Shown piece after piece: positions 1 through 11,096 of a DNA stretch of 11,496 nt; position 1 is the first letter of the stretch; every line of letters starts with the position of its first letter. The notes beneath the pieces are model-generated. The model saw only the letters and a list, made by a program, of their open reading frames with translations, was not told the origin of the DNA and did no database searches. Source of the stretch: a virus. Lineage: Duplodnaviria; Heunggongvirae; Uroviricota; Caudoviricetes. The stretch spans positions 1 to 11,496 of IMG/VR virus record IMGVR_UViG_2541047847_000003; one strand, 5' to 3'. The translations under genes and the position numbers were made by a program.

Positions 1-95
1 AGTTTGCTCCTGCCATAACGTGAAGAAGCAATGACCTGGTGGTCCGTGACTTCCCTACGCTGGCATTATCCAGATCAGGTGATACGGGTATTTCT
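1..95 (-). promoter_or_regulatory. thiM: 3' part of the thiM TPP riboswitch (aptamer 3' half plus expression platform); thiM start codon lies just beyond the left edge
   Basis: Reverse complement of 1..95 reads AGAAAUACCCGUAUCACCUGAUCUGGAUAAUGCCAGCGUAGGGAAGUCACGGACCACCAGGUCAUUGCUUCUUCACGUUAUGGCAGGAGCAAACU, which matches the well-studied E. coli thiM thi-box leader as I recall it. Confidence 0.85.
82..95. other. attL core: 14-bp ATACGGGTATTTCT, identical to the copy at 11083..11096
   Basis: Exact 14-bp direct repeat at both island ends; flanking bases differ on both sides (81 g vs 11082 a; 96 t vs 11097 c). The repeat lies inside the riboswitch sequence. Confidence 0.75.
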
Positions 96-1430: not shown

Positions 1431-1958
1431 TTACTTGTCTTTATTCGGCTGCAACTTATCCGGCACATTTCCGGTAGTTTCCATCAGGTAATCAGCCAGT
1501 ATCTGCGGGAGGTTGTCGTCAACTCCGGCACTGGCATTACAGGCTTTAGCCACTTCCTTTTTAAGTCCATCCAGCATAGCCGGAGTCATCTGTGGGAAGC
1601 GCCTTTGCATGGTAAGCGGCAGACTGTCCATGATAGATGAAATCTGACTCGCCAGTTTGGAAAGAACATACATACAAAACTCTGTATCAATAACGTCGCC
1701 GCGTTCGCGCTCGTTTTTAAGCTCCTGCGCCTCTGCCTGTGCTGTCAGTAATCTGATCCTGACGCGTAAAAGTTCATCGTCATCAATATCGCCCGTTTCG
1801 TTTGTAATCTGACTAATTGCATTGTTAACCCGATTATCTATTACACTGGCAACATCATAGAATGCCTCACGGCCCTTACGCTCGACGGGAATCACTCCCC
1901 ACTTATCAAACGCAGTGGCGCTTACACGGCAACTTTTTGCCATGTTTTTTTTGTTCAT
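1431..1958 (-). CDS. Terminase small subunit, lambda Nu1 family
   Basis: Translation aligns with lambda Nu1: RLLTAQAEAQELKNERERGDVIDTEFCMYVLSKLASQISSIMDSLPLTMQRRFP versus RLTRAQADAQELKNARDSAEVVETAFCTFVLSRIAGEIASILDGLPLSVQRRFP. N-terminal DNA-binding region is more diverged. Start chosen at the ATG giving MNKKN; the ORF track extends to 1982. Confidence 0.85.
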   Translation of the reverse strand: MNKKNMAKSCRVSATAFDKWGVIPVERKGREAFYDVASVIDNRVNNAISQITNETGDIDDDELLRVRIRLLTAQAEAQELKNERERGDVIDTEFCMYVLSKLASQISSIMDSLPLTMQRRFPQMTPAMLDGLKKEVAKACNASAGVDDNLPQILADYLMETTGNVPDKLQPNKDK

Positions 1959-2083
1959 CAGGTGCAATTTCATTGATACCACAACTTAATTACTGTTTCA
2001 GGTTGGTGTATTGATTGTATTTTTCTCTTCTTATTCATAGAGATAGAGCGAACAACAAAACCACCACCAGCCCCCTGAAAATG

Positions 2084-2148
2084 CTCATAAATAGCGAAAA
2101 CCCGCGAGGTCGCCGCCCCGTAGCCTGCCGGATCGCCGGAAAGGACCC
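2084..2148 (-). other. Lambda-type cos site (cosQ-like and cosN; 12-nt cohesive-end sequence at 2107..2118)
   Basis: Reverse complement of 2084..2120 is ACGGGGCGGCGACCTCGCGGGTTTTCGCTATTTATGA, identical to the lambda cosN junction and left end. 2119..2148 matches the lambda right-end cosQ region at about 27 of 30 positions. Lies about 130-150 bp upstream of terS, as in lambda. Confidence 0.85.
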
Positions 2149-2174
2149 GCCAGCCAGAACGGGCCCTAATTTCA

Positions 2175-2558
2175 TCAACCAATCAACTTATAGCGACCAT
2201 CCCGTGCATTGCGACGTACACGCTCAATCTTGAGGCATAGCGCCGCATCTGGCTTTTTGGGGACAGGTACGCGGCAATATTCAGAAGCTCGAGGAATATT
2301 GTTTATCCAGTCGATCACTTCACTTAAATACCAGGCCTTACGCCCTTCCGTAACCTGTACGCGTTCGGGGAACTCTCCACGAGCCTCAAGGTTTAGCAAT
2401 GTGCGACGGCTAAGGGTAGTAAGTTCCATCACCTGATTCATATCAACAAGGCGTTCACTTAAACGCATTTTGTCAGCAATAGCCTTTAATTCCTCTACTG
2501 CTGGATCCGGATACATCATTTCGGCAATTGGCTTAAGGTCATTGTAATGATTCTGCAT
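2175..2558 (-). CDS. AlpA/Vis-family HTH protein (second copy), 127 aa
   Basis: Central segment LTTLSRRTLLNLEARGEFPERVQVTEGRKAWYLSEVIDWI matches the AlpA-type HTH pattern. GGGGGA Shine-Dalgarno 4 nt upstream of the ATG; sits between the decoration gene and cos. Confidence 0.65.
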   Translation of the reverse strand: MQNHYNDLKPIAEMMYPDPAVEELKAIADKMRLSERLVDMNQVMELTTLSRRTLLNLEARGEFPERVQVTEGRKAWYLSEVIDWINNIPRASEYCRVPVPKKPDAALCLKIERVRRNARDGRYKLIG

Positions 2559-2569
2559 TGTATCCCCCT

Positions 2570-2911
2570 TTACACACGAGCCAGCGGCTGAACAGAAATA
2601 CCTGAGCCAACAAACGCGGCAACCTTTGCCGACAGTTCTCTTACAGACTCAGGCCAGTTCAGAGCATCAACATTTAAAACACCTGTCTTATAAACCTGTG
2701 CCTGTGTTTTTTTCGCTGTGTCGATTTGTACAGCGGAAACATAAACCGCTTTGCCTGCGCTCGTTCCATCCCATACCACTAGCGCACCAGTTGCATCTTC
2801 CTGCATCAGTGGCGTAAACGCAGGTATTACCCCTTTATTGGCTGAAAATATCCCCAGCGTAGTAACCAGTGCTTCAGTGCCAGACATGAGTTCAGTGTAA
2901 TGAGTAGCCAT
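2570..2911 (-). CDS. Head decoration protein, lambda gpD-like
   Basis: 113 aa. FTPLMQEDATGALVVWDGTSAGKAV parallels lambda gpD [25 protein letters not shown]; similar length. GGGGGAG Shine-Dalgarno 9 bp after the MCP stop. Confidence 0.8.
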   Translation of the reverse strand: MATHYTELMSGTEALVTTLGIFSANKGVIPAFTPLMQEDATGALVVWDGTSAGKAVYVSAVQIDTAKKTQAQVYKTGVLNVDALNWPESVRELSAKVAAFVGSGISVQPLARV

Positions 2912-2920
2912 TGCTCCCCC

Positions 2921-3967
2921 TTAGCCAATGCGAACGGTAACAAAACGATTGATGCGGGCCGGTATTGGCTGTGGTGCTGAATGTGTCTGCACATATTCAA
3001 TAGCCGGATCACCAGGCACAATATAGTTTTTCGGTGCAAGTTCGGCTTTAGTCAGCCCCATCCGAATTAGCTCCGGATCCTGAATACCGCCATAAGCGAC
3101 AATCCCCTGAAGAGCCGTATTGCCAAGCACCATCAAATCAGGATCAAGGAAATATTTTTCAGTTCCGTCCTCGTCGGTATAACGCCCGCTGTAAACAACA
3201 ATCGCAACATCGCCCATATACCCTTTAAAACTCACCGAATCACCAAGGTCTTTAAGGGCCGTTTCCAGTTCGGAATTAGAACCTCGACGGGTATCCAGAG
3301 CCTCTTTTACAGCTCTGAATGAGCGGTATTTTTTCCATACATTGCCGCCCATAATAATGATATTAGTGACTCCCTCACTAAATTCTGCGTAGCTCTCAAT
3401 ATCATCATTTGGATCAAAAGATCCTTTATCCTTACCTGACCACTCAGCACCGCCAGACTGAGTGATGATATTTTGTGGTTTAATATTCCAGTCCAGTTCA
3501 TAACGTTCAATACCATCGCCCTCAATGATATTTTTCCCCGTTGTGATTGCCTGAACAGCAAGCCATTCAATACGTGCACGTATAGCTTTAGCCTGATTTA
3601 CAATCGCCTGTTTAACTTTAATATTACGCGCCCCAAAAGCATTGTATTGTTCAGGTGATACACCAGCAGGGCGCACAGCTAACTTATTTGGATCAATGCT
3701 GCTTTTCGGTTTCATATAGCCAGGGCGAATTGTTTTTGATTCGTATCCCTCATCTCGTGAAACTTTACTGCCCACCATAGGAGAGCAAAACGCCGCGATC
3801 GGGATATTTGGATCGTCGATCGTATCAAGAATAATGTCTCTCGATTCAAACATTACCGAGCGAGTGAAAAACAAACTGGTAAACAACGCATTTAATTTTT
3901 TTTGCACATCTTCAGCATTAGCCACCTGCACAAGCTGTGTAGGCGAATATAAATCAACCATACTCAT
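2921..3967 (-). CDS. Major capsid protein, lambda gpE family
   Basis: Long collinear similarity to lambda gpE, for example NIITQSGGAEWSGKDKGSFDPNDDIESYA and AVKEALDTRRGSNSELETALKDLG and GDVAIVVYSG. Start set at MSMVDLY (lambda begins MSMYTT) with AAGAGG just upstream; the ORF track start at 4048 is probably an upstream extension. Confidence 0.9.
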   Translation of the reverse strand: MSMVDLYSPTQLVQVANAEDVQKKLNALFTSLFFTRSVMFESRDIILDTIDDPNIPIAAFCSPMVGSKVSRDEGYESKTIRPGYMKPKSSIDPNKLAVRPAGVSPEQYNAFGARNIKVKQAIVNQAKAIRARIEWLAVQAITTGKNIIEGDGIERYELDWNIKPQNIITQSGGAEWSGKDKGSFDPNDDIESYAEFSEGVTNIIIMGGNVWKKYRSFRAVKEALDTRRGSNSELETALKDLGDSVSFKGYMGDVAIVVYSGRYTDEDGTEKYFLDPDLMVLGNTALQGIVAYGGIQDPELIRMGLTKAELAPKNYIVPGDPAIEYVQTHSAPQPIPARINRFVTVRIG

Positions 3968-4132
3968 CCTCTTTACATTCATTACAAATAATTGTGAATA
4001 TATTCTATTACCGATGTCTGCTATGCGAATACATGCAACCAAGTGCAATGTTGTATAAAATCTGCCGTGACAACTTCAGTGCTGATAATTCGTGTTAATG
4101 TATTTACTTCCTTTGGTCGGGATTTATGTAGC

Positions 4133-4178: not shown

Positions 4179-4601
4179 TTAAAACGGTATATTATCGCCG
4201 TACGGATCATCATTCCCCGACTGTTGTTTTGCCCTGTTCAGTGCGTCAGTAGCCTGGCCCTGTTGACCTTTTTTGCCGCCCGGTCGCGCCGTTCTGGCAC
4301 TGATTACACTGTCTGCGATAACCTGCCAGCCCTGCCGCGTTTCGCCGTTCTGGCCTGTCCACTGGCTTACCTGCATGTTACCCGCCACGCTCACCAGTTC
4401 GCCTTTGTGGTGTTTTGCCAGTGCGTCGGCCTGTCTGCCAAACGCCAGGACGGATAACCACATCGTCGCCGTTCCGTCATCTGCCTGGCTGCACGGAAGT
4501 GGGACCGCCATACTCGCCATCGTCATTTGTGTACCCTTGCTGGTGGTCTTTAACTGCGGGTCAGCCACCAGCCGCCCGTAAGCCGCTATCTGTGCTGTCA
4601 T
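4179..4601 (-). CDS. Single-stranded DNA-binding protein (SSB-like)
   Basis: 140 aa with an OB-fold-like pattern (WLSVLAFGRQADALAKHHKGELVSVAGNMQVSQWTGQNGETRQ), a Gly/Gln-rich linker and a C-terminal DDPYGDNIPF resembling the SSB DDDIPF tail. Confidence 0.7.
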   Translation of the reverse strand: MTAQIAAYGRLVADPQLKTTSKGTQMTMASMAVPLPCSQADDGTATMWLSVLAFGRQADALAKHHKGELVSVAGNMQVSQWTGQNGETRQGWQVIADSVISARTARPGGKKGQQGQATDALNRAKQQSGNDDPYGDNIPF

Positions 4602-4843
4602 GCTGTCTGCTCTCCGGTTTTAACGTTGATGGTTGTCACCTGTTCCGCTTCGGCAATCTCCCGTTCTGTCAGCGTGGCAAAGTTTGCAGCTGCCGTTGTC
4701 ATGAATGAGCTAATCAGTTCGGGATGTGCTTTCGCATATCCTTCCCCGGCGTTGCGGTCGATGATTTTTATCGACACCCTTAACCAGTGTTCCGTCAAAT
4801 CAAGGGCGTGCGATTGTGATTTTTTTGTGTGCTTCGCTGTCAT
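4598..4843 (-). CDS. Hypothetical protein, 81 aa, translationally coupled to ssb
   Basis: ORF whose stop overlaps the ssb start by 4 bp (ATGA); no recognisable motifs. Confidence 0.45.
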   Translation of the reverse strand: MTAKHTKKSQSHALDLTEHWLRVSIKIIDRNAGEGYAKAHPELISSFMTTAAANFATLTEREIAEAEQVTTINVKTGEQTA

Positions 4844-4895
4844 AGGCTTTATCTCACAGCAGTAAATTAAAATTTTTGCGTTTTAACCCTTCACC

Positions 4896-5116
4896 TGTTC
4901 ACCTTTTGATATTTTATCTTTTAATTCATAATGTTAAGGGGTGAACAGTTTCACAAAAACTATTCACCAACTGTTCACCACTGTTCACCCTTGAAGCTCA
5001 ATAAACAATCAAAAAGGTGAACAGTGAATAGTTTGGTGAACAGTTCATAAATAACTGTTCACCCTATAACATACTGATACAAAAGATATTTATGACAGGG
5101 TGAACAGTGGTGAACA
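4896..5116. repeat. Origin-like iteron cluster: about 10 copies of TGTTCACC/GGTGAACA in both orientations with AT-rich spacers (P4 ori/crr type)
   Basis: TGTTCACC at 4896, 4972, 4982, 5056; GGTGAACA at 4940, 5016, 5035, 5099, 5109; variants at 4961 and 5024. Immediately downstream of the alpha-like gene. Confidence 0.85.
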
Positions 5117-5130
5117 GTTATTCCATAAGT

Positions 5131-6948
5131 TTAATTTTTGCTATCGTCATTAGTGACCGATACACATGATGGCATCCAGTCTTCTGATTCCTCCGTCAGT
5201 GTCACGTTTGAACGCAAACCGTGCTTCGTTTTCCGTTTCATATACTCCCTGCCATATTCCGCCATTGCCCCCGGCATATCTTTACCGAAGCGCGTCAGTG
5301 TTACAGGTTTACCAAACCCATGTGCCCTCATATAAGCCAGATAGGCATGATAGAGATACCTGCGTGGGCTGAATGGCACAATTTCAGCATTACCCACTAA
5401 CAGGCCATCACACATTACCGACGCCATGAGATAGCCGCAGAAGTCCACCAGCGAATCCCCCTCTCGCTTTATCGCCAGTGCTTCTTCAGATTTCTGCTGC
5501 TCATATAACAGGCGTCTGGCTTCGTCCTGGTCAGCAAACCGTGTAAGCAGATGGCGAATCACTACCGCCAACTCACCTTCTATTTTTTCCGCCAGCATTG
5601 GATCGCGTTCGTTCTCCGGTACAACTTCCGAAAAATTGAATATCACCCGACGACGTGAGATCCCCCCGCTGCGGTCACTGAATGACATGGCGTTATTGTT
5701 AACCGCCAGCACTACTGCCGGAATACGCGTTGAGTAGGGGGCTTTGTGTTTCGGGTCAATTGCCACCTTGTCACCGCCTGTAATGGCCTTAATTCCTGCC
5801 CCATCACCAGCGTAGCGGGTCATATCCGGCATGATAATCAGCGAAAAGCCAACCACTAACGCGCGTTCCCTTGCATCTTCCAGCGCCTTCATGCTTGCCG
5901 ATACTGTGTTGGCCTTACCCGCCAGCATGGTGCAAATCTCCGCCATCACGCTTTTACCACTTCCCCCTGGACCTGTTACCTCAATGAATAACTGCCAGTC
6001 GTACCGGTTCGCCAGCACCATGAATAATGCAGCCAGTACGCGATCCGCCTTGCGGTCATTCTCAGCCACCGAACGGCGTAACCACTTCCAGAAATTCGGC
6101 GCATGTGTTGCCAGCGTTTCCCCCTCTGCTGGTGGGCTGAAAGGTAATTCACTGGCAATTAACAACCAGTCGTTTTTGTTATGCTCCCGAAAATTACCTG
6201 TTCTGGTATCAAATACCCCGTTACTGAATCCAATCAGGTTACGGGCTGTATTCCCCATTACAGGCAAACTTAACTTCATGGTATCGACCGCCGATTTAAT
6301 GGCGTTCTGCGAATAGCTGATCTCTGCATCAATGAAAATCTGCGCCATAGCTCGCTGTAATTCTTTATCCTGTACTGGCTCCCATACAACGCCGTTGTAA
6401 TGGTGAACAGTGTCAGAGTCAGCATGAATCGCCAGTTCACCGCCATAATGTGCCAGGAGAACTTCGCCGCGTTGACTTGCTCCCATCTGGTTAAGCGCCA
6501 GTGATGAAGCGTTATCGTCTTTTACCCGCTCTTTTTTCTTTACAGGCAGTTCAACTACCTTTTTCTTTTCCGCCAGCTCTGCCCGTTCACGTTCCAGATA
6601 TTCGCGCCAGTTCTCCCGTTTCTGGCTGTGCATTCCTTCAGGGTAATAATCAGCATCCCTGACACCTGCCGCTGCCAGTTTCTGCCCGATGGTATTAACA
6701 AGCCCCGGACGCAATAACCCCGCCTGATAGAGACGCACGCGATAGCGTCCGTCCGGTACGATTTGCAGGTTGTCCAGTTCGGCAAGTTGTTGCTCTCCAA
6801 GCCAGACAGGAGGCACGTTATCGCCAGCCAGTCGCCCGTCCTGTTCCTGCCACTGCTTCGCATGTGCCCACGCATCACTACCCGCAAAAATGATGACTTC
6901 CGTCATTTTGTCACGCGGCTGGTGTTTTAAATTTGGCGCTTTTTTCAT
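5131..6948 (-). CDS. P4 alpha-like replication protein (primase/helicase family, D5-type P-loop NTPase)
   Basis: Walker A GPGGSGKS and a Walker B-like hydrophobic stretch; adjacent TGTTCACC iterons. Start set at the ATG giving MKKAPNL (GGAGAGAG upstream); the ORF track start at 6963 is a GTG. No primase catalytic motif was identified by eye. Confidence 0.8.
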   Translation of the reverse strand: MKKAPNLKHQPRDKMTEVIIFAGSDAWAHAKQWQEQDGRLAGDNVPPVWLGEQQLAELDNLQIVPDGRYRVRLYQAGLLRPGLVNTIGQKLAAAGVRDADYYPEGMHSQKRENWREYLERERAELAEKKKVVELPVKKKERVKDDNASSLALNQMGASQRGEVLLAHYGGELAIHADSDTVHHYNGVVWEPVQDKELQRAMAQIFIDAEISYSQNAIKSAVDTMKLSLPVMGNTARNLIGFSNGVFDTRTGNFREHNKNDWLLIASELPFSPPAEGETLATHAPNFWKWLRRSVAENDRKADRVLAALFMVLANRYDWQLFIEVTGPGGSGKSVMAEICTMLAGKANTVSASMKALEDARERALVVGFSLIIMPDMTRYAGDGAGIKAITGGDKVAIDPKHKAPYSTRIPAVVLAVNNNAMSFSDRSGGISRRRVIFNFSEVVPENERDPMLAEKIEGELAVVIRHLLTRFADQDEARRLLYEQQKSEEALAIKREGDSLVDFCGYLMASVMCDGLLVGNAEIVPFSPRRYLYHAYLAYMRAHGFGKPVTLTRFGKDMPGAMAEYGREYMKRKTKHGLRSNVTLTEESEDWMPSCVSVTNDDSKN

Positions 6949-7250: not shown

Positions 7251-7571
7251 TTATCCCCGATTTGAATCAGTATTCGCTTTCTTTATGGCATTTAATGCAT
7301 CTGTGGCATTTTCAATGGTGCACCGTAACGAAATATCAAACTGCCCAAGCATTGCCAGTAACAAACCGATATTACCCATATCAATGCGCATAGCCTTTTC
7401 GTCATAGTCCTCATTTTCTGACGCATGCCACATCAGACTACCAATTGACGCAACAGCCATTGATATATTGTCAGTAGCCCCATCCGCAGCGGAATAAACC
7501 TTTTTAGCAATATCATGCTCACAGTTAAAATGCGGATTAATCAGGTACTGGTAATTTGACATATCAGGCAT
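7251..7571 (-). CDS. Hypothetical protein, 106 aa
   Basis: ORF in the same operon; its start overlaps the stop of the upstream 67-aa ORF (ATGCCTGA). Confidence 0.55.
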   Translation of the reverse strand: MPDMSNYQYLINPHFNCEHDIAKKVYSAADGATDNISMAVASIGSLMWHASENEDYDEKAMRIDMGNIGLLLAMLGQFDISLRCTIENATDALNAIKKANTDSNRG

Positions 7572-7767
7572 GGCACACCCCCTGACGAATACGGGCGGCG
7601 AATACCATCACGCAGCCAGCCGGGGATTGCTGGCGTGCTTCCTGTTCGCTGGTGGCCACGATGTGAATCACGCGCGGTTGTGCGGTGCTCAGGGCGATAA
7701 AACGCCAGATGTATTTATTCAGGTCGTGCGAGTCCCGCCCTTGCGGGTGTGTGGTATGATTTCTCAT
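7564..7767 (-). CDS. Hypothetical small protein, 67 aa, first gene of the replication operon
   Basis: Internal ATG of the 320-aa track ORF, preceded by GAGG; the sequence upstream in that frame looks non-coding. Stop is coupled to the next gene. Confidence 0.45.
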   Translation of the reverse strand: MRNHTTHPQGRDSHDLNKYIWRFIALSTAQPRVIHIVATSEQEARQQSPAGCVMVFAARIRQGVCHA

Positions 7768-7863
7768 AGCTACCTCGATACGCTTTCTATCGTTGGTGGT
7801 TAGAAGCCCGGTTAGTGTTAGCGCACTGCCGGGTTTCGTCGTTTCTGCACCTTGCATCAACAA

Positions 7864-7917
7864 GGTGTTGAACACCAATTTAAGCCTAGGTGTTAAACAC
7901 GTCAAGTGTTGAACACT
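7864..7917. promoter_or_regulatory. Three operator-like inverted repeats (GGTGTTGAACACC, GGTGTTAAACAC, AGTGTTGAACACT) in a divergent promoter region
   Basis: Repeats at 7864..7876, 7889..7900 and 7905..7917. The third overlaps a candidate -35 (TTGAAC) placed 17 bp from CATACT for the plus-strand gene. Confidence 0.6.
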
Positions 7918-7966
7918 TATTTTTTTTCCTGCATACTGCATTTGTTTTTTGTAAGGGGTACACAAC

Positions 7967-8146
7967 ATGGCGACAAAAGCAGTAAACGCAAAATCACAAA
8001 CAGTTGCGGCAAGGGTTCCGCATGAAGTTATGAACAATGTTGAGGCGGTAAAAATGCCTGGTGAAAGTACAGGGCAGTTTGTAACAGCAGCATTAAAGCG
8101 AGAAGTTGAATACCGCCAGCGTCGCAAGGCCAAAGAGCAGGAGTAA
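7967..8146 (+). CDS. Small ribbon-helix-helix-like protein, 59 aa; candidate repressor
   Basis: Below the ORF-track length cutoff. AGGGG Shine-Dalgarno 8 nt upstream. Pattern QTVAARVPHEVMNNVEAV...GESTGQFVTAALKRE fits a beta-strand/helix/helix RHH layout. Confidence 0.5.
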   Translation: MATKAVNAKSQTVAARVPHEVMNNVEAVKMPGESTGQFVTAALKREVEYRQRRKAKEQE

Positions 8147-8203
8147 CCATCACCAGCGCCGTGGTGCGGTGAACTGTGGCGCACAGGGTTACAGGTATCT
8201 ACG

Positions 8204-8383
8204 ATGACTGACAAATCATTAAAGAAATTATCCTCATCCAAGAAAAAACAACGCAAAAATGCGGTAAACGAACATGAACCGGAGAGATTCGCACCATGTG
8301 CGTTTGTCCTTGAGAAGTACCTTAAAGAGTATTCTAGGAAAATACGCTCATTGCAGGCATGGCAGCGAATCGAGCCAGACTGA
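8204..8383 (+). CDS. Hypothetical small basic protein, 59 aa
   Basis: ORF found by hand downstream of the RHH-like gene and before the plus-strand terminator; weak Shine-Dalgarno. Confidence 0.3.
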   Translation: MTDKSLKKLSSSKKKQRKNAVNEHEPERFAPCAFVLEKYLKEYSRKIRSLQAWQRIEPD

Positions 8384-8447
8384 TAGCATTGCCCACCAGC
8401 CAACAACCTGGTATTCTGGATATGCTCAAGTTTAGTGTTATGCCACT

Positions 8448-8477
8448 GGCGACCGCCCTTGGTCGCCTTTGTTTTAT
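8448..8477 (+). terminator. Rho-independent terminator (plus strand)
   Basis: GGCGACC, loop GCCCTT, GGTCGCC, followed by TTTGTTTTAT. Confidence 0.6.
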
Positions 8478-8494
8478 GTGTCATAGCTCCCCCC

Positions 8495-8719
8495 CTACGC
8501 TGCCTTACCTGAATTAACGCGGTCACGGCTTTGCACCCAGTCCATAACTTCGGAAAGCAACCAGCCTACAGAACGCCCCCCAAGATTACGGCGAGACGGA
8601 AAGCCCCCTTTCTTCTCCAGTTCGTAGCGTGTAGTACGGCTGACGCCTGTTAACTTACGACATTCATCTTCACGAATTACGCGATCTGTTAGTGATTGAA
8701 ATTGTGTATTTTGATTCAT
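8495..8719 (-). CDS. alpA: AlpA-family transcriptional regulator / excisionase-like HTH protein
   Basis: 74 aa; RKLTGVSRTTRYELEKKGGFPSRRNLGGRSVGWLLSEVMDWV matches the AlpA/Vis-type HTH pattern; GAGGG Shine-Dalgarno. Confidence 0.8.
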   Translation of the reverse strand: MNQNTQFQSLTDRVIREDECRKLTGVSRTTRYELEKKGGFPSRRNLGGRSVGWLLSEVMDWVQSRDRVNSGKAA

Positions 8720-8822: not shown

Positions 8823-9677
8823 TTAATTTTCATTAGATAACATTTTTCTTATTTTTTCTAAAGAATCGCTGCGCATTATTTTTTCTAAGAAGGGTTTTAC
8901 AGTCTGAGCAATAGCAAAGGTGTCCTTTTCACCATCAGGATACAAAGATACGGCAAGCACCCCTAATGAAATTTTTCTATCTGTAGACAACTCCCAAGAT
9001 AATAAGTCAATTAATGGGATTATCTTATAATCAATAATTTTACGTCGTATGCTCTCCCAACTTCCTGCAATTGGTTTGTCTGGCTCAACAATTGAAAGTT
9101 CACTACGCCATTTTGGTAATAGTTTTGTAAACGCTTCAATCAACTCATCATCTCTGTTATGTAGTAAGTCAACAGAAACAAGCATATTATCTAATGTATC
9201 AGAAAGGAGATTCACTGGTTCACGCATCACAGCCCAAAACATCCCATTATCTTCTGATATTAAACTTCCAACCATCTCATTATCTATGATGATTGGTTTA
9301 TCCTTCCAATATCCTCTTTCCGCAGTCAGTTTATTAATCATTGATATATCAAACCTTGTTACAGGTTTAATTCCATCATCATAACTTAGCTCAATTAACT
9401 TCGGCTGCACTTTATGGTCATATTCTTTTTGTTTATCACAAAACCAATCGTCTTCTTTCAGCTCTCCAAATGGATCCCCATAATTATTATGCAACGGGTA
9501 TTCAGCACCAAACATAAAACCATATTCAGGCATCTCAGAATGTTTCATTGTTAAATCATCTTGTCGCCAATATAATTGGCGAAATAGATCTTTATCCGAC
9601 AAGTTTTCTAGGCAATCATATTTGCCTAAATCAAATGACTTTGGTAAATCTTTTTTACTATTTACTTTTTTCGTCAT
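8823..9677 (-). CDS. Hypothetical 284-aa protein, AT-rich cargo gene immediately downstream of int
   Basis: Long ORF whose start overlaps the int stop by 4 bp. Visibly more AT-rich than the neighbouring genes (not computed). No motif I recognise. Confidence 0.7.
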   Translation of the reverse strand: MTKKVNSKKDLPKSFDLGKYDCLENLSDKDLFRQLYWRQDDLTMKHSEMPEYGFMFGAEYPLHNNYGDPFGELKEDDWFCDKQKEYDHKVQPKLIELSYDDGIKPVTRFDISMINKLTAERGYWKDKPIIIDNEMVGSLISEDNGMFWAVMREPVNLLSDTLDNMLVSVDLLHNRDDELIEAFTKLLPKWRSELSIVEPDKPIAGSWESIRRKIIDYKIIPLIDLLSWELSTDRKISLGVLAVSLYPDGEKDTFAIAQTVKPFLEKIMRSDSLEKIRKMLSNEN

Positions 9678-11082: not shown

Positions 11083-11096
11083 ATACGGGTATTTCT
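11083..11096. other. attR core: ATACGGGTATTTCT
   Basis: Identical to 82..95; continuous on its right with chromosomal thiM leader sequence. Confidence 0.75.

Follow-up and report, generated by a model that had tools for sequence, protein, structure and literature searches.

The stretch of DNA analysed here (the window; 11,496 bp of the virus record IMGVR_UViG_2541047847_000003) contains a phage-inducible chromosomal island (PICI), in which the minus-strand gene rep, coding for the initiator-helicase Rep, is followed by an array of octamer repeats (iterons) at 4888-5116. We suggest that this array is very probably the vegetative replication origin of the PICI, which is located between thiM and rcnR, and that it is the target of Rep. 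The suggestion is based on the layout of the iterons, on their covariation with the end of Rep, and on comparison with the origins of satellite P4 and of the related island EcCICFT073.

Iteron array downstream of rep

The octamer TGTTCACC occurs exactly ten times in the window, and nine of these copies are within 4896-5116. With dinucleotide-preserving shuffles the mean is 0.52 and the maximum 3 copies per whole window. An extra site, TATTCACC at 4961, appears when one mismatch is allowed. Two more degenerate copies, CCTTCACC (4888-4895) and AGTGAATA (5023-5030), stand at positions where relatives have good copies. The array thus has 12 sites (9 exact and 3 degenerate) and starts 14 nt past the rep stop codon (Table 1). 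The GC content of its iteron-free stretches is 0.17, 0.27 and 0.26, against 0.46 for the window.

Read in the direction of rep, with ">" for TGTTCACC on the rep-coding strand (minus strand of the window) and "<" for the opposite orientation, the sites are arranged as >> 43 < 21 >>> (34-bp start-to-start gap over the centre) <<< 21 > 44 <<. Hence, the cluster is two mirror-image six-site modules around an AT-rich centre near 5003. The same symmetry is seen in a repeat search, which returns inverted arms of 56 nt and 36 nt, and most sites are an integral number of helical turns away from the first. As single-stranded DNA, the segment 4880-5125 folds into a single 246-nt hairpin (-50.7 kcal/mol, z -8.5). 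The DNA may extrude as a cruciform, or the strand exposed by unwinding may form the hairpin; the fold may also be a mere consequence of the mirrored iterons.

The original prediction for this locus, about ten octamers in both orientations with AT-rich spacers, is borne out, and so is their match to the P4 type I iterons: the octamer is the same as the "ori type 1 repeat" of P4 annotated in GenBank record X51522. The predicted limits, 4896-5116, are right for the exact copies, but the array is slightly longer. It was also predicted that there is one cluster only. Indeed, exact and one-mismatch searches find no second cluster in the window, but the cluster itself consists of two inverted ori1-like modules, which is the standard PICI layout.

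The tenth exact copy (6402-6409) and a one-mismatch copy in the opposite orientation (6434-6441) are both inside rep and at chance level. The copy at 6402 was considered as the counterpart of the internal ori2 of P4 and rejected, as a single copy is expected by chance. P4 ori2 is also not known to contain type 1 iterons. DnaA boxes, the IHF consensus and GATC are absent from 4800-5199, Rfam gives no match in the window, and a full-text literature search with the octamer returned primer sequences only. Of 5426 complete E. coli genomes, 594 (~11%) carry the whole 287-bp intergenic region, without annotation.

Table 1. Positions of the probable origin, of rep and its domains, and of other island features in the window.
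Feature	Position	Strand	Remarks
Whole intergenic origin region	4844..5130	no strand	287 bp, GC 0.33; rep stop codon to the next minus-strand gene start
Exact TGTTCACC copies	4896, 4972, 4982, 5056	+	
Exact TGTTCACC copies	4940, 5016, 5035, 5099, 5109	-	GGTGAACA as read on the + strand
Left (distal) six-iteron module	4888..4989	+	Mirror image of the right module; order: CCTTCACC 4888, TGTTCACC 4896, 36-bp AT-rich spacer, GGTGAACA 4940, TATTCACC 4961, TGTTCACC 4972 and 4982
AT-rich spacer in left module	4904..4939	no strand	GC 0.17; most AT-rich 20-mers of the region; candidate unwinding element
AT-rich dyad centre between modules	4990..5015	no strand	26 bp, GC 0.27
Right (rep-proximal) six-iteron module	5016..5116	-	Order, orientation and spacing as in P4 ori1 (X51522 9310-9413); order: GGTGAACA 5016, AGTGAATA 5023, GGTGAACA 5035, TGTTCACC 5056, 35-bp AT-rich spacer, GGTGAACA 5099 and 5109
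AT-rich spacer in right module	5064..5098	no strand	GC 0.26
rep, initiator-helicase	5131..6948	-	605 aa from ATG 6948; frame open to GTG 6963 (610 aa)
Predicted origin-binding domain of Rep	5170..5460	-	Residues 502-598 of the 610-aa frame; matches PDB 1KA8, E 1.8e-24
Binding-domain segment EYMKRKTKHGLRSNVTL	5194..5253	-	~Residues 571-590; class varies together with the octamer; recombination breakpoint against L007
N-terminal TOPRIM-like domain of Rep	6514..6948	-	145 aa; sits where alpha has its primase
Single-strand DNA-binding protein (SSB)	4179..4601	-	PF00436, E 4e-16; two genes downstream of the origin
att direct repeat AGAAATACCCGTAT	82..95	-	14 bp; thiM-side island end
att direct repeat AGAAATACCCGTAT	11083..11096	-	14 bp; integrase/rcnR-side island end

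Rep and its covariation with the iterons

ATG 6948 is the likely start codon of rep, since it is so annotated in E. coli C21 and is supported by alignment with relatives. Rep has the Pfam domains D5_N, SF3 ATPase (DUF5906) and Pox_D5. In BLASTP it is 51% identical to P4 alpha over 452 residues, corresponding to residues 320-771 of alpha (helicase and C-terminal domain), and the first 320 residues of alpha have no match in Rep. Rep is alpha-like only from residue ~150 on, and the zinc-ribbon/TOPRIM primase of alpha is not there. The identity to EcCICFT073 Rep is 49% over 596 aligned residues and spans the full length including the N-terminal domain; the identity to the "DNA primase" of the deposited "Escherichia phage vB_KppS-Ant" (LR881103) is 75%. 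The helicase region is also distantly similar to the DNA primase chain 7OLA, presumably the primase-helicase of a SaPI.

The predicted origin-binding domain matches the solved C-terminal domain of P4 alpha (PDB 1KA8). Within it, residues ~571-590 are predicted from the winged-helix topology to form the wing. We take the 1KA8 domain to be a winged-helix origin-binding domain which recognises type 1 iterons.

PICI initiators conserve the N-terminal domain, which occurs in addition in fusions with other classes of helicase, for instance AAA_25/RepA-like ones. Its AlphaFold model, built with 23 sequences, is confident (pLDDT 85). The domain has no zinc ribbon, and where EGxxD is usual it reads FAGSDAW, with another residue in place of the glutamate; its primase activity is uncertain. 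Some E. coli genomes encode proteins of 233 aa (P0002, P0003) in which this domain, at 98-100% identity, continues in frame into an SSB domain. Such fusions imply deletions that took out the helicase and binding domain of Rep together with the origin and the 81-aa open reading frame (ORF) downstream, with replication-dead islands as the result.

A locus scan with one genome per species gave 72 loci encoding relatives. The array is present directly 3' of rep in every locus with the PICI-type N-terminus (more than 20 loci, at least ten genera). Where a locus was mapped with its own octamer, the mirrored architecture is preserved or can still be recognised; some loci, such as L007 and L014/L015, are less regular.

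We analysed 28 Rep C-termini, which come from 25 of the 72 loci, the window, P4 and vB_KppS-Ant. The octamer TGTTCACC is used in the window, vB_KppS-Ant, Kluyvera, Raoultella, Pluralibacter, Citrobacter, Klebsiella and Rahnella; TGTCTACC in E. ruysiae, K. georgiana and E. hormaechei; TGTCCG / TGTCCACC in Serratia; TGTGCACC in Proteus; and CTCTACC in Symbiopectobacterium. Grouped by the sequence class of their last ~20 binding-domain residues, the proteins fall without exception into the octamer classes. The domain end KRKTKHG-IRSNVTL (KRHTKQG-IQTNLTL in P4) goes with TGTTCACC, a variant end (CTKGPDKGRVITNVLL), which has a five-residue insertion, with TGTCTACC, and the end ESKKKATRGRIQSN with TGTCCG.

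The E. ruysiae locus L007 has TGTCTACC iterons. Over the body of rep its DNA shares 89-96% identity with the window, and the identity is 35% in the last 100 nt of the gene (window 5248-5149) and low through the array. Relatives with the same octamer as the window are 64-73% identical there. When 4700-5100 of L007 is aligned to 5249-4850 of the window, the breakpoint of the mosaic is sharp, with 35-50% identity past it. Evidently, a single exchange has replaced both the specificity-determining end of rep and the iterons. Eight origins with the same octamer, taken from several genera, have an identity of 0.91 in iteron columns and of 0.67 in the other columns (Mann-Whitney p 1.4e-12). Taken as a sign that the array is the Rep target, covariation and conservation are strong circumstantial evidence and not proof, since the sequences are related and independent octamer switches are few.

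Probable origin function and its alternatives

The comparison with homologues suggests the following scheme for the initiation of replication.

Step 1: When the island is induced and excised, the C-terminal winged-helix domain of Rep would bind the twelve TGTTCACC-type iterons. As an SF3 helicase with the origin-binding domain of the P4 alpha type, Rep would be assembled by the two mirrored modules, with their sites mostly in helical phase, into oligomers standing head to head.

Step 2: The Rep oligomers would then melt an AT-rich stretch, for which the 26-bp centre and the two ~35-bp intra-module spacers are the candidates. Two helicase rings would be loaded in opposite directions, resulting in bidirectional theta replication. 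Analogous double-ring loading occurs with other SF3 initiators at palindromic origins.

Step 3: The unwound DNA would be coated by the SSB of the island (4179-4601), which is a probable accessory replication factor. Priming would be performed by the host primase or, less likely, by the TOPRIM-like N-terminal domain of Rep. We infer the melting site, the double-ring loading and the source of the primer.

Origin function is supported by results from EcCICFT073. There, a temperature-sensitive plasmid survived at 44 °C when it carried the cloned rep with the ori next to it; deletion of rep abolished replication of the plasmid and deletion of ori significantly reduced it, and neither the helper phage nor other island genes were required (PMC6092414). 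The origins of PICIs have an AT-rich region flanked by two iteron sets (PMC6092414). The array described here has the following features of Gram-negative PICI origins: it is located directly 3' of the initiator gene, it has two iteron sets round an AT-rich centre, it is carried by a PICI, and its Rep is homologous to the validated one.

The original prediction, which placed the replication origin at the array, thus agrees with the comparative evidence from related loci and EcCICFT073. Its description of the preceding gene as alpha-like is right for the helicase and the binding domain (51% identity, 1KA8), but the zinc-ribbon primase is replaced by the 145-aa PICI-specific TOPRIM-like domain. 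Likewise, "P4-type" applies to the module layout, which is that of ori1; the element, however, is a PICI, and the P4 array 3' of alpha is crr.

Some points weigh against this assignment. Binding of Rep and origin firing are predicted for this sequence from its homologues. The tested relative, EcCICFT073, has another octamer, and deletion of its ori reduced, rather than abolished, colony formation (PMC6092414). The single-sequence AlphaFold model of the binding domain has a pLDDT of 37 and is unusable, so the wing keeps its assignment from topology. In P4, crr next to alpha is an auxiliary site, and adjacency alone is no proof of initiation. The covariation comes from related sequences with ~4-5 octamer classes and few independent switches.

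One rival reading is that the array is a crr-like auxiliary (enhancer) site next to rep and that true initiation takes place at a second distant iteron site, as in P4, where ori1 is 4.5 kb from crr. It is in line with the position of crr, directly 3' of alpha, and with an alpha-like gene of Erwinia (L017) flanked by TGTTCACC clusters ~2 kb on either side. Nevertheless, we consider it very unlikely, as both ends of the island fall inside the window and there is no second cluster, the layout is that of ori1 and not the crr layout seen 3' of true alpha genes, and the P4 type 2 repeat CAYTTAAAG is absent from the window. Moreover, rep and the adjacent region of EcCICFT073 suffice for replication (PMC6092414), which speaks against a need for a distant second site and means that priming is by Rep or the host.

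Two other rivals deny the array an origin function altogether. Given that it lies between rep and the downstream genes of a unidirectional block, and that iteron-binding initiators often autoregulate, it could be mainly a set of transcriptional operators for Rep or another island protein, controlling the SSB, capsid and terminase genes. However, a promoter and terminator scan of 4500-5400 finds neither a sigma-70-like promoter nor an intrinsic terminator, the layout is that of P4 ori1 and of the tested EcCICFT073 ori, and twelve sites in phase, with AT-rich spacers, are characteristic of an origin. The array may have a side-role in regulation; operators without an origin are very unlikely. The long imperfect palindrome might also be a site of the cos/pac kind, for packaging, recombination or cruciform formation, that has nothing to do with Rep. 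This would fit the folding of 4880-5125 as one hairpin and the small terminase gene on the island. Such a site is extremely improbable: the mirrored iteron modules fully account for the palindrome, the repeats covary with the binding domain of Rep and not with the terminase, and the same rep-ori is combined with different packaging modules. Hence, we prefer the vegetative origin of the PICI as the function of 4888-5116.

The origin is of a known type, the island at this site is already catalogued (EcCI224), and the basic picture of how such origins work is unchanged. Modestly new for this replicon type is that the Rep and origin of the PICI are close relatives of P4 alpha and ori1. It was stated that the homology between PICI Rep and P4 alpha is "distant" and that the origin layout is unique to PICIs (PMC6092414). 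For the present replicon type both statements are corrected, as Rep and alpha share 51% identity over 452 residues, and both halves of the origin are P4 ori1 modules. The 287-bp stretch found in ~11% of complete E. coli genomes can now be annotated as the origin of a common PICI replicon. A second modestly new point is that the iterons and the specificity end of Rep move as a single cassette. The covariation provides a small natural "code table", relating the central bases of the octamer to ~20 residues of the binding domain, which could guide specificity swaps or the design of orthogonal satellite replicons.

With the octamer in common and the binding domains homologous, P4-like satellites and this PICI type might cross-talk in shared cells, although we regard this as rather doubtful. 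In that case P4 alpha would fire or be titrated at the PICI origin and PICI Rep would bind P4 ori/crr, with cross-activation or incompatibility of the two satellite families.

The host island and comparison with known origins

The element is a PICI of the EcCI224/EcCICFT073 type and not a P4-like satellite, because of its att repeats, its synteny with EcCICFT073, and the absence of homologues of the P4 genes sid, delta, psu, epsilon and cI among the island proteins. The repeat AGAAATACCCGTAT is the att listed for PICI EcCI224 at "frmR-thiM" (Fillol-Salom et al. 2018, ISME J, PMC6092414, supplement), and a 97.5%-identical copy of the island is present in the thiM/rcnR interval of E. coli C21. 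The island belongs to the ~10-15 kb size class, is flanked by att, has int, alpA and rep in one direction and is devoid of tail and lysis genes; classification as a P4-like satellite or cfPICI is ruled out by gene content. All genes are on the minus strand, in the order integrase (with P4-type arm-binding domain), DUF6387 protein, AlpA-type regulator, Icd-like region, 106-aa ORF, DUF4222 protein, rep (605-aa helicase), iteron array, 81-aa ORF, SSB, lambda-gpE-like major capsid, head decoration, helix-turn-helix (HTH) protein and small terminase.

The packaging genes at 1431-4048 (minus strand) code for the lambda-gpE-like capsid, gpD-like decoration and small terminase proteins, with no portal and no protease. 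Sister islands that share this rep-ori have a DUF1441 gene and a fusion of ClpP protease and capsid instead. The presence of different packaging genes beside the same rep-ori indicates that the packaging module is swapped independently of the replicon. At 7564-8526 (minus strand) there is an open frame of 320 aa, whose last ~90 residues match the Icd-like/"repressor" family; this region is where the window departs from the C21 copy. Near-identical genomes have several small genes annotated there (Icd-like, hypothetical, and YlcI/YnfO on the other strand). The frame was considered as a separate primase and rejected, as it has no primase signal and near-identical genomes annotate several small genes instead. 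The 16.5-kb vB_KppS-Ant (L002), deposited as an induced prophage, has the same iteron origin next to its rep, and also capsid, portal, connectors, terminase and a tape-measure gene. In this respect it resembles a capsid-forming satellite more than a complete phage.

EcCICFT073 is syntenic with the island: its genes are int, HTH, Icd-like, DUF4222, "DNA primase family protein", then a 288-bp gap, a small ORF, SSB, PerC, capsid and decoration. Its origin has the same 6+6 mirrored layout, >> 43 < 21 >>> centre <<< 21 > 43 <<, in the 288 bp 3' of rep. However, the octamer is TGTTCACC here and TGTCTACC/TATCTACC/TCTCTACC there, and the Rep binding domains show a corresponding difference in their last ~20 residues. 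Unlike the present island, EcCICFT073 has no small terminase gene.

The general logic and the position of the origin are shared with SaPI origins, a comparison drawn in PMC6092414. Unlike in those, the iteron sequences here are unrelated and no DNA homology is detectable. SaPIs have a separate primase gene.

For P4 we used the annotation of X51522; literature searches on P4 ori1, crr and iterons found nothing relevant. According to X51522, ori (9310-9413) has six sites and is located between ORF88 and sid, and crr (4291-4590) follows directly 3' of alpha as two direct 120-bp repeats of five sites each. The sites of ori read - - - (22) + (43) - -, with spacings of 10 and 11, which is the right module of the array and, inverted, the left one. 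Each half of the array shares with P4 ori1 the six sites, their order and orientation, the spacings 10/11, 21-22, 43 and 10, and a ~35-bp AT-rich spacer. Both halves of the origins of the window, vB_KppS-Ant and EcCICFT073 and the single P4 ori1 (9302-9421), seven sequences altogether, align colinearly over all six sites and part of the spacer. The SF3 helicase and the binding domain (1KA8) of the initiators are homologous as well. However, P4 has a single ori1 module 2.3 kb from the alpha start and needs crr, whereas the island has two modules head to head directly after rep and no distant partner. It also lacks the type 2 repeats and the other P4 genes, and its initiator is without the zinc-ribbon primase of alpha.

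With crr, the array shares the octamer, the position directly 3' of the initiator gene and the ">> 43 <" sub-motif. The repeats of crr are direct, with the layout < 14 > 18 > 43 < 9 <, unlike the inverted six-site modules of the window with their ori1 layout. L033 has the crr layout again, 3' of a true alpha-type gene, and so does L029 except for one spacing. In Erwinia rhapontici (L017), TGTTCACC clusters at 52-137 and 6508-6603 flank a complete alpha-type gene, zinc ribbon included, at distances of ~2 kb upstream and ~2.1 kb downstream. These clusters are split as ori and crr are in P4, not fused as in PICIs. The positional counterpart of the array in P4 is thus crr, while its layout counterpart is ori1. 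It is conceivable, though rather doubtful, that the PICI origin arose by inverted duplication of a P4-ori1-type module. If so, the sites that are kept apart in P4 would have been fused beside the specificity end of rep and thereby made exchangeable as one recombination cassette.
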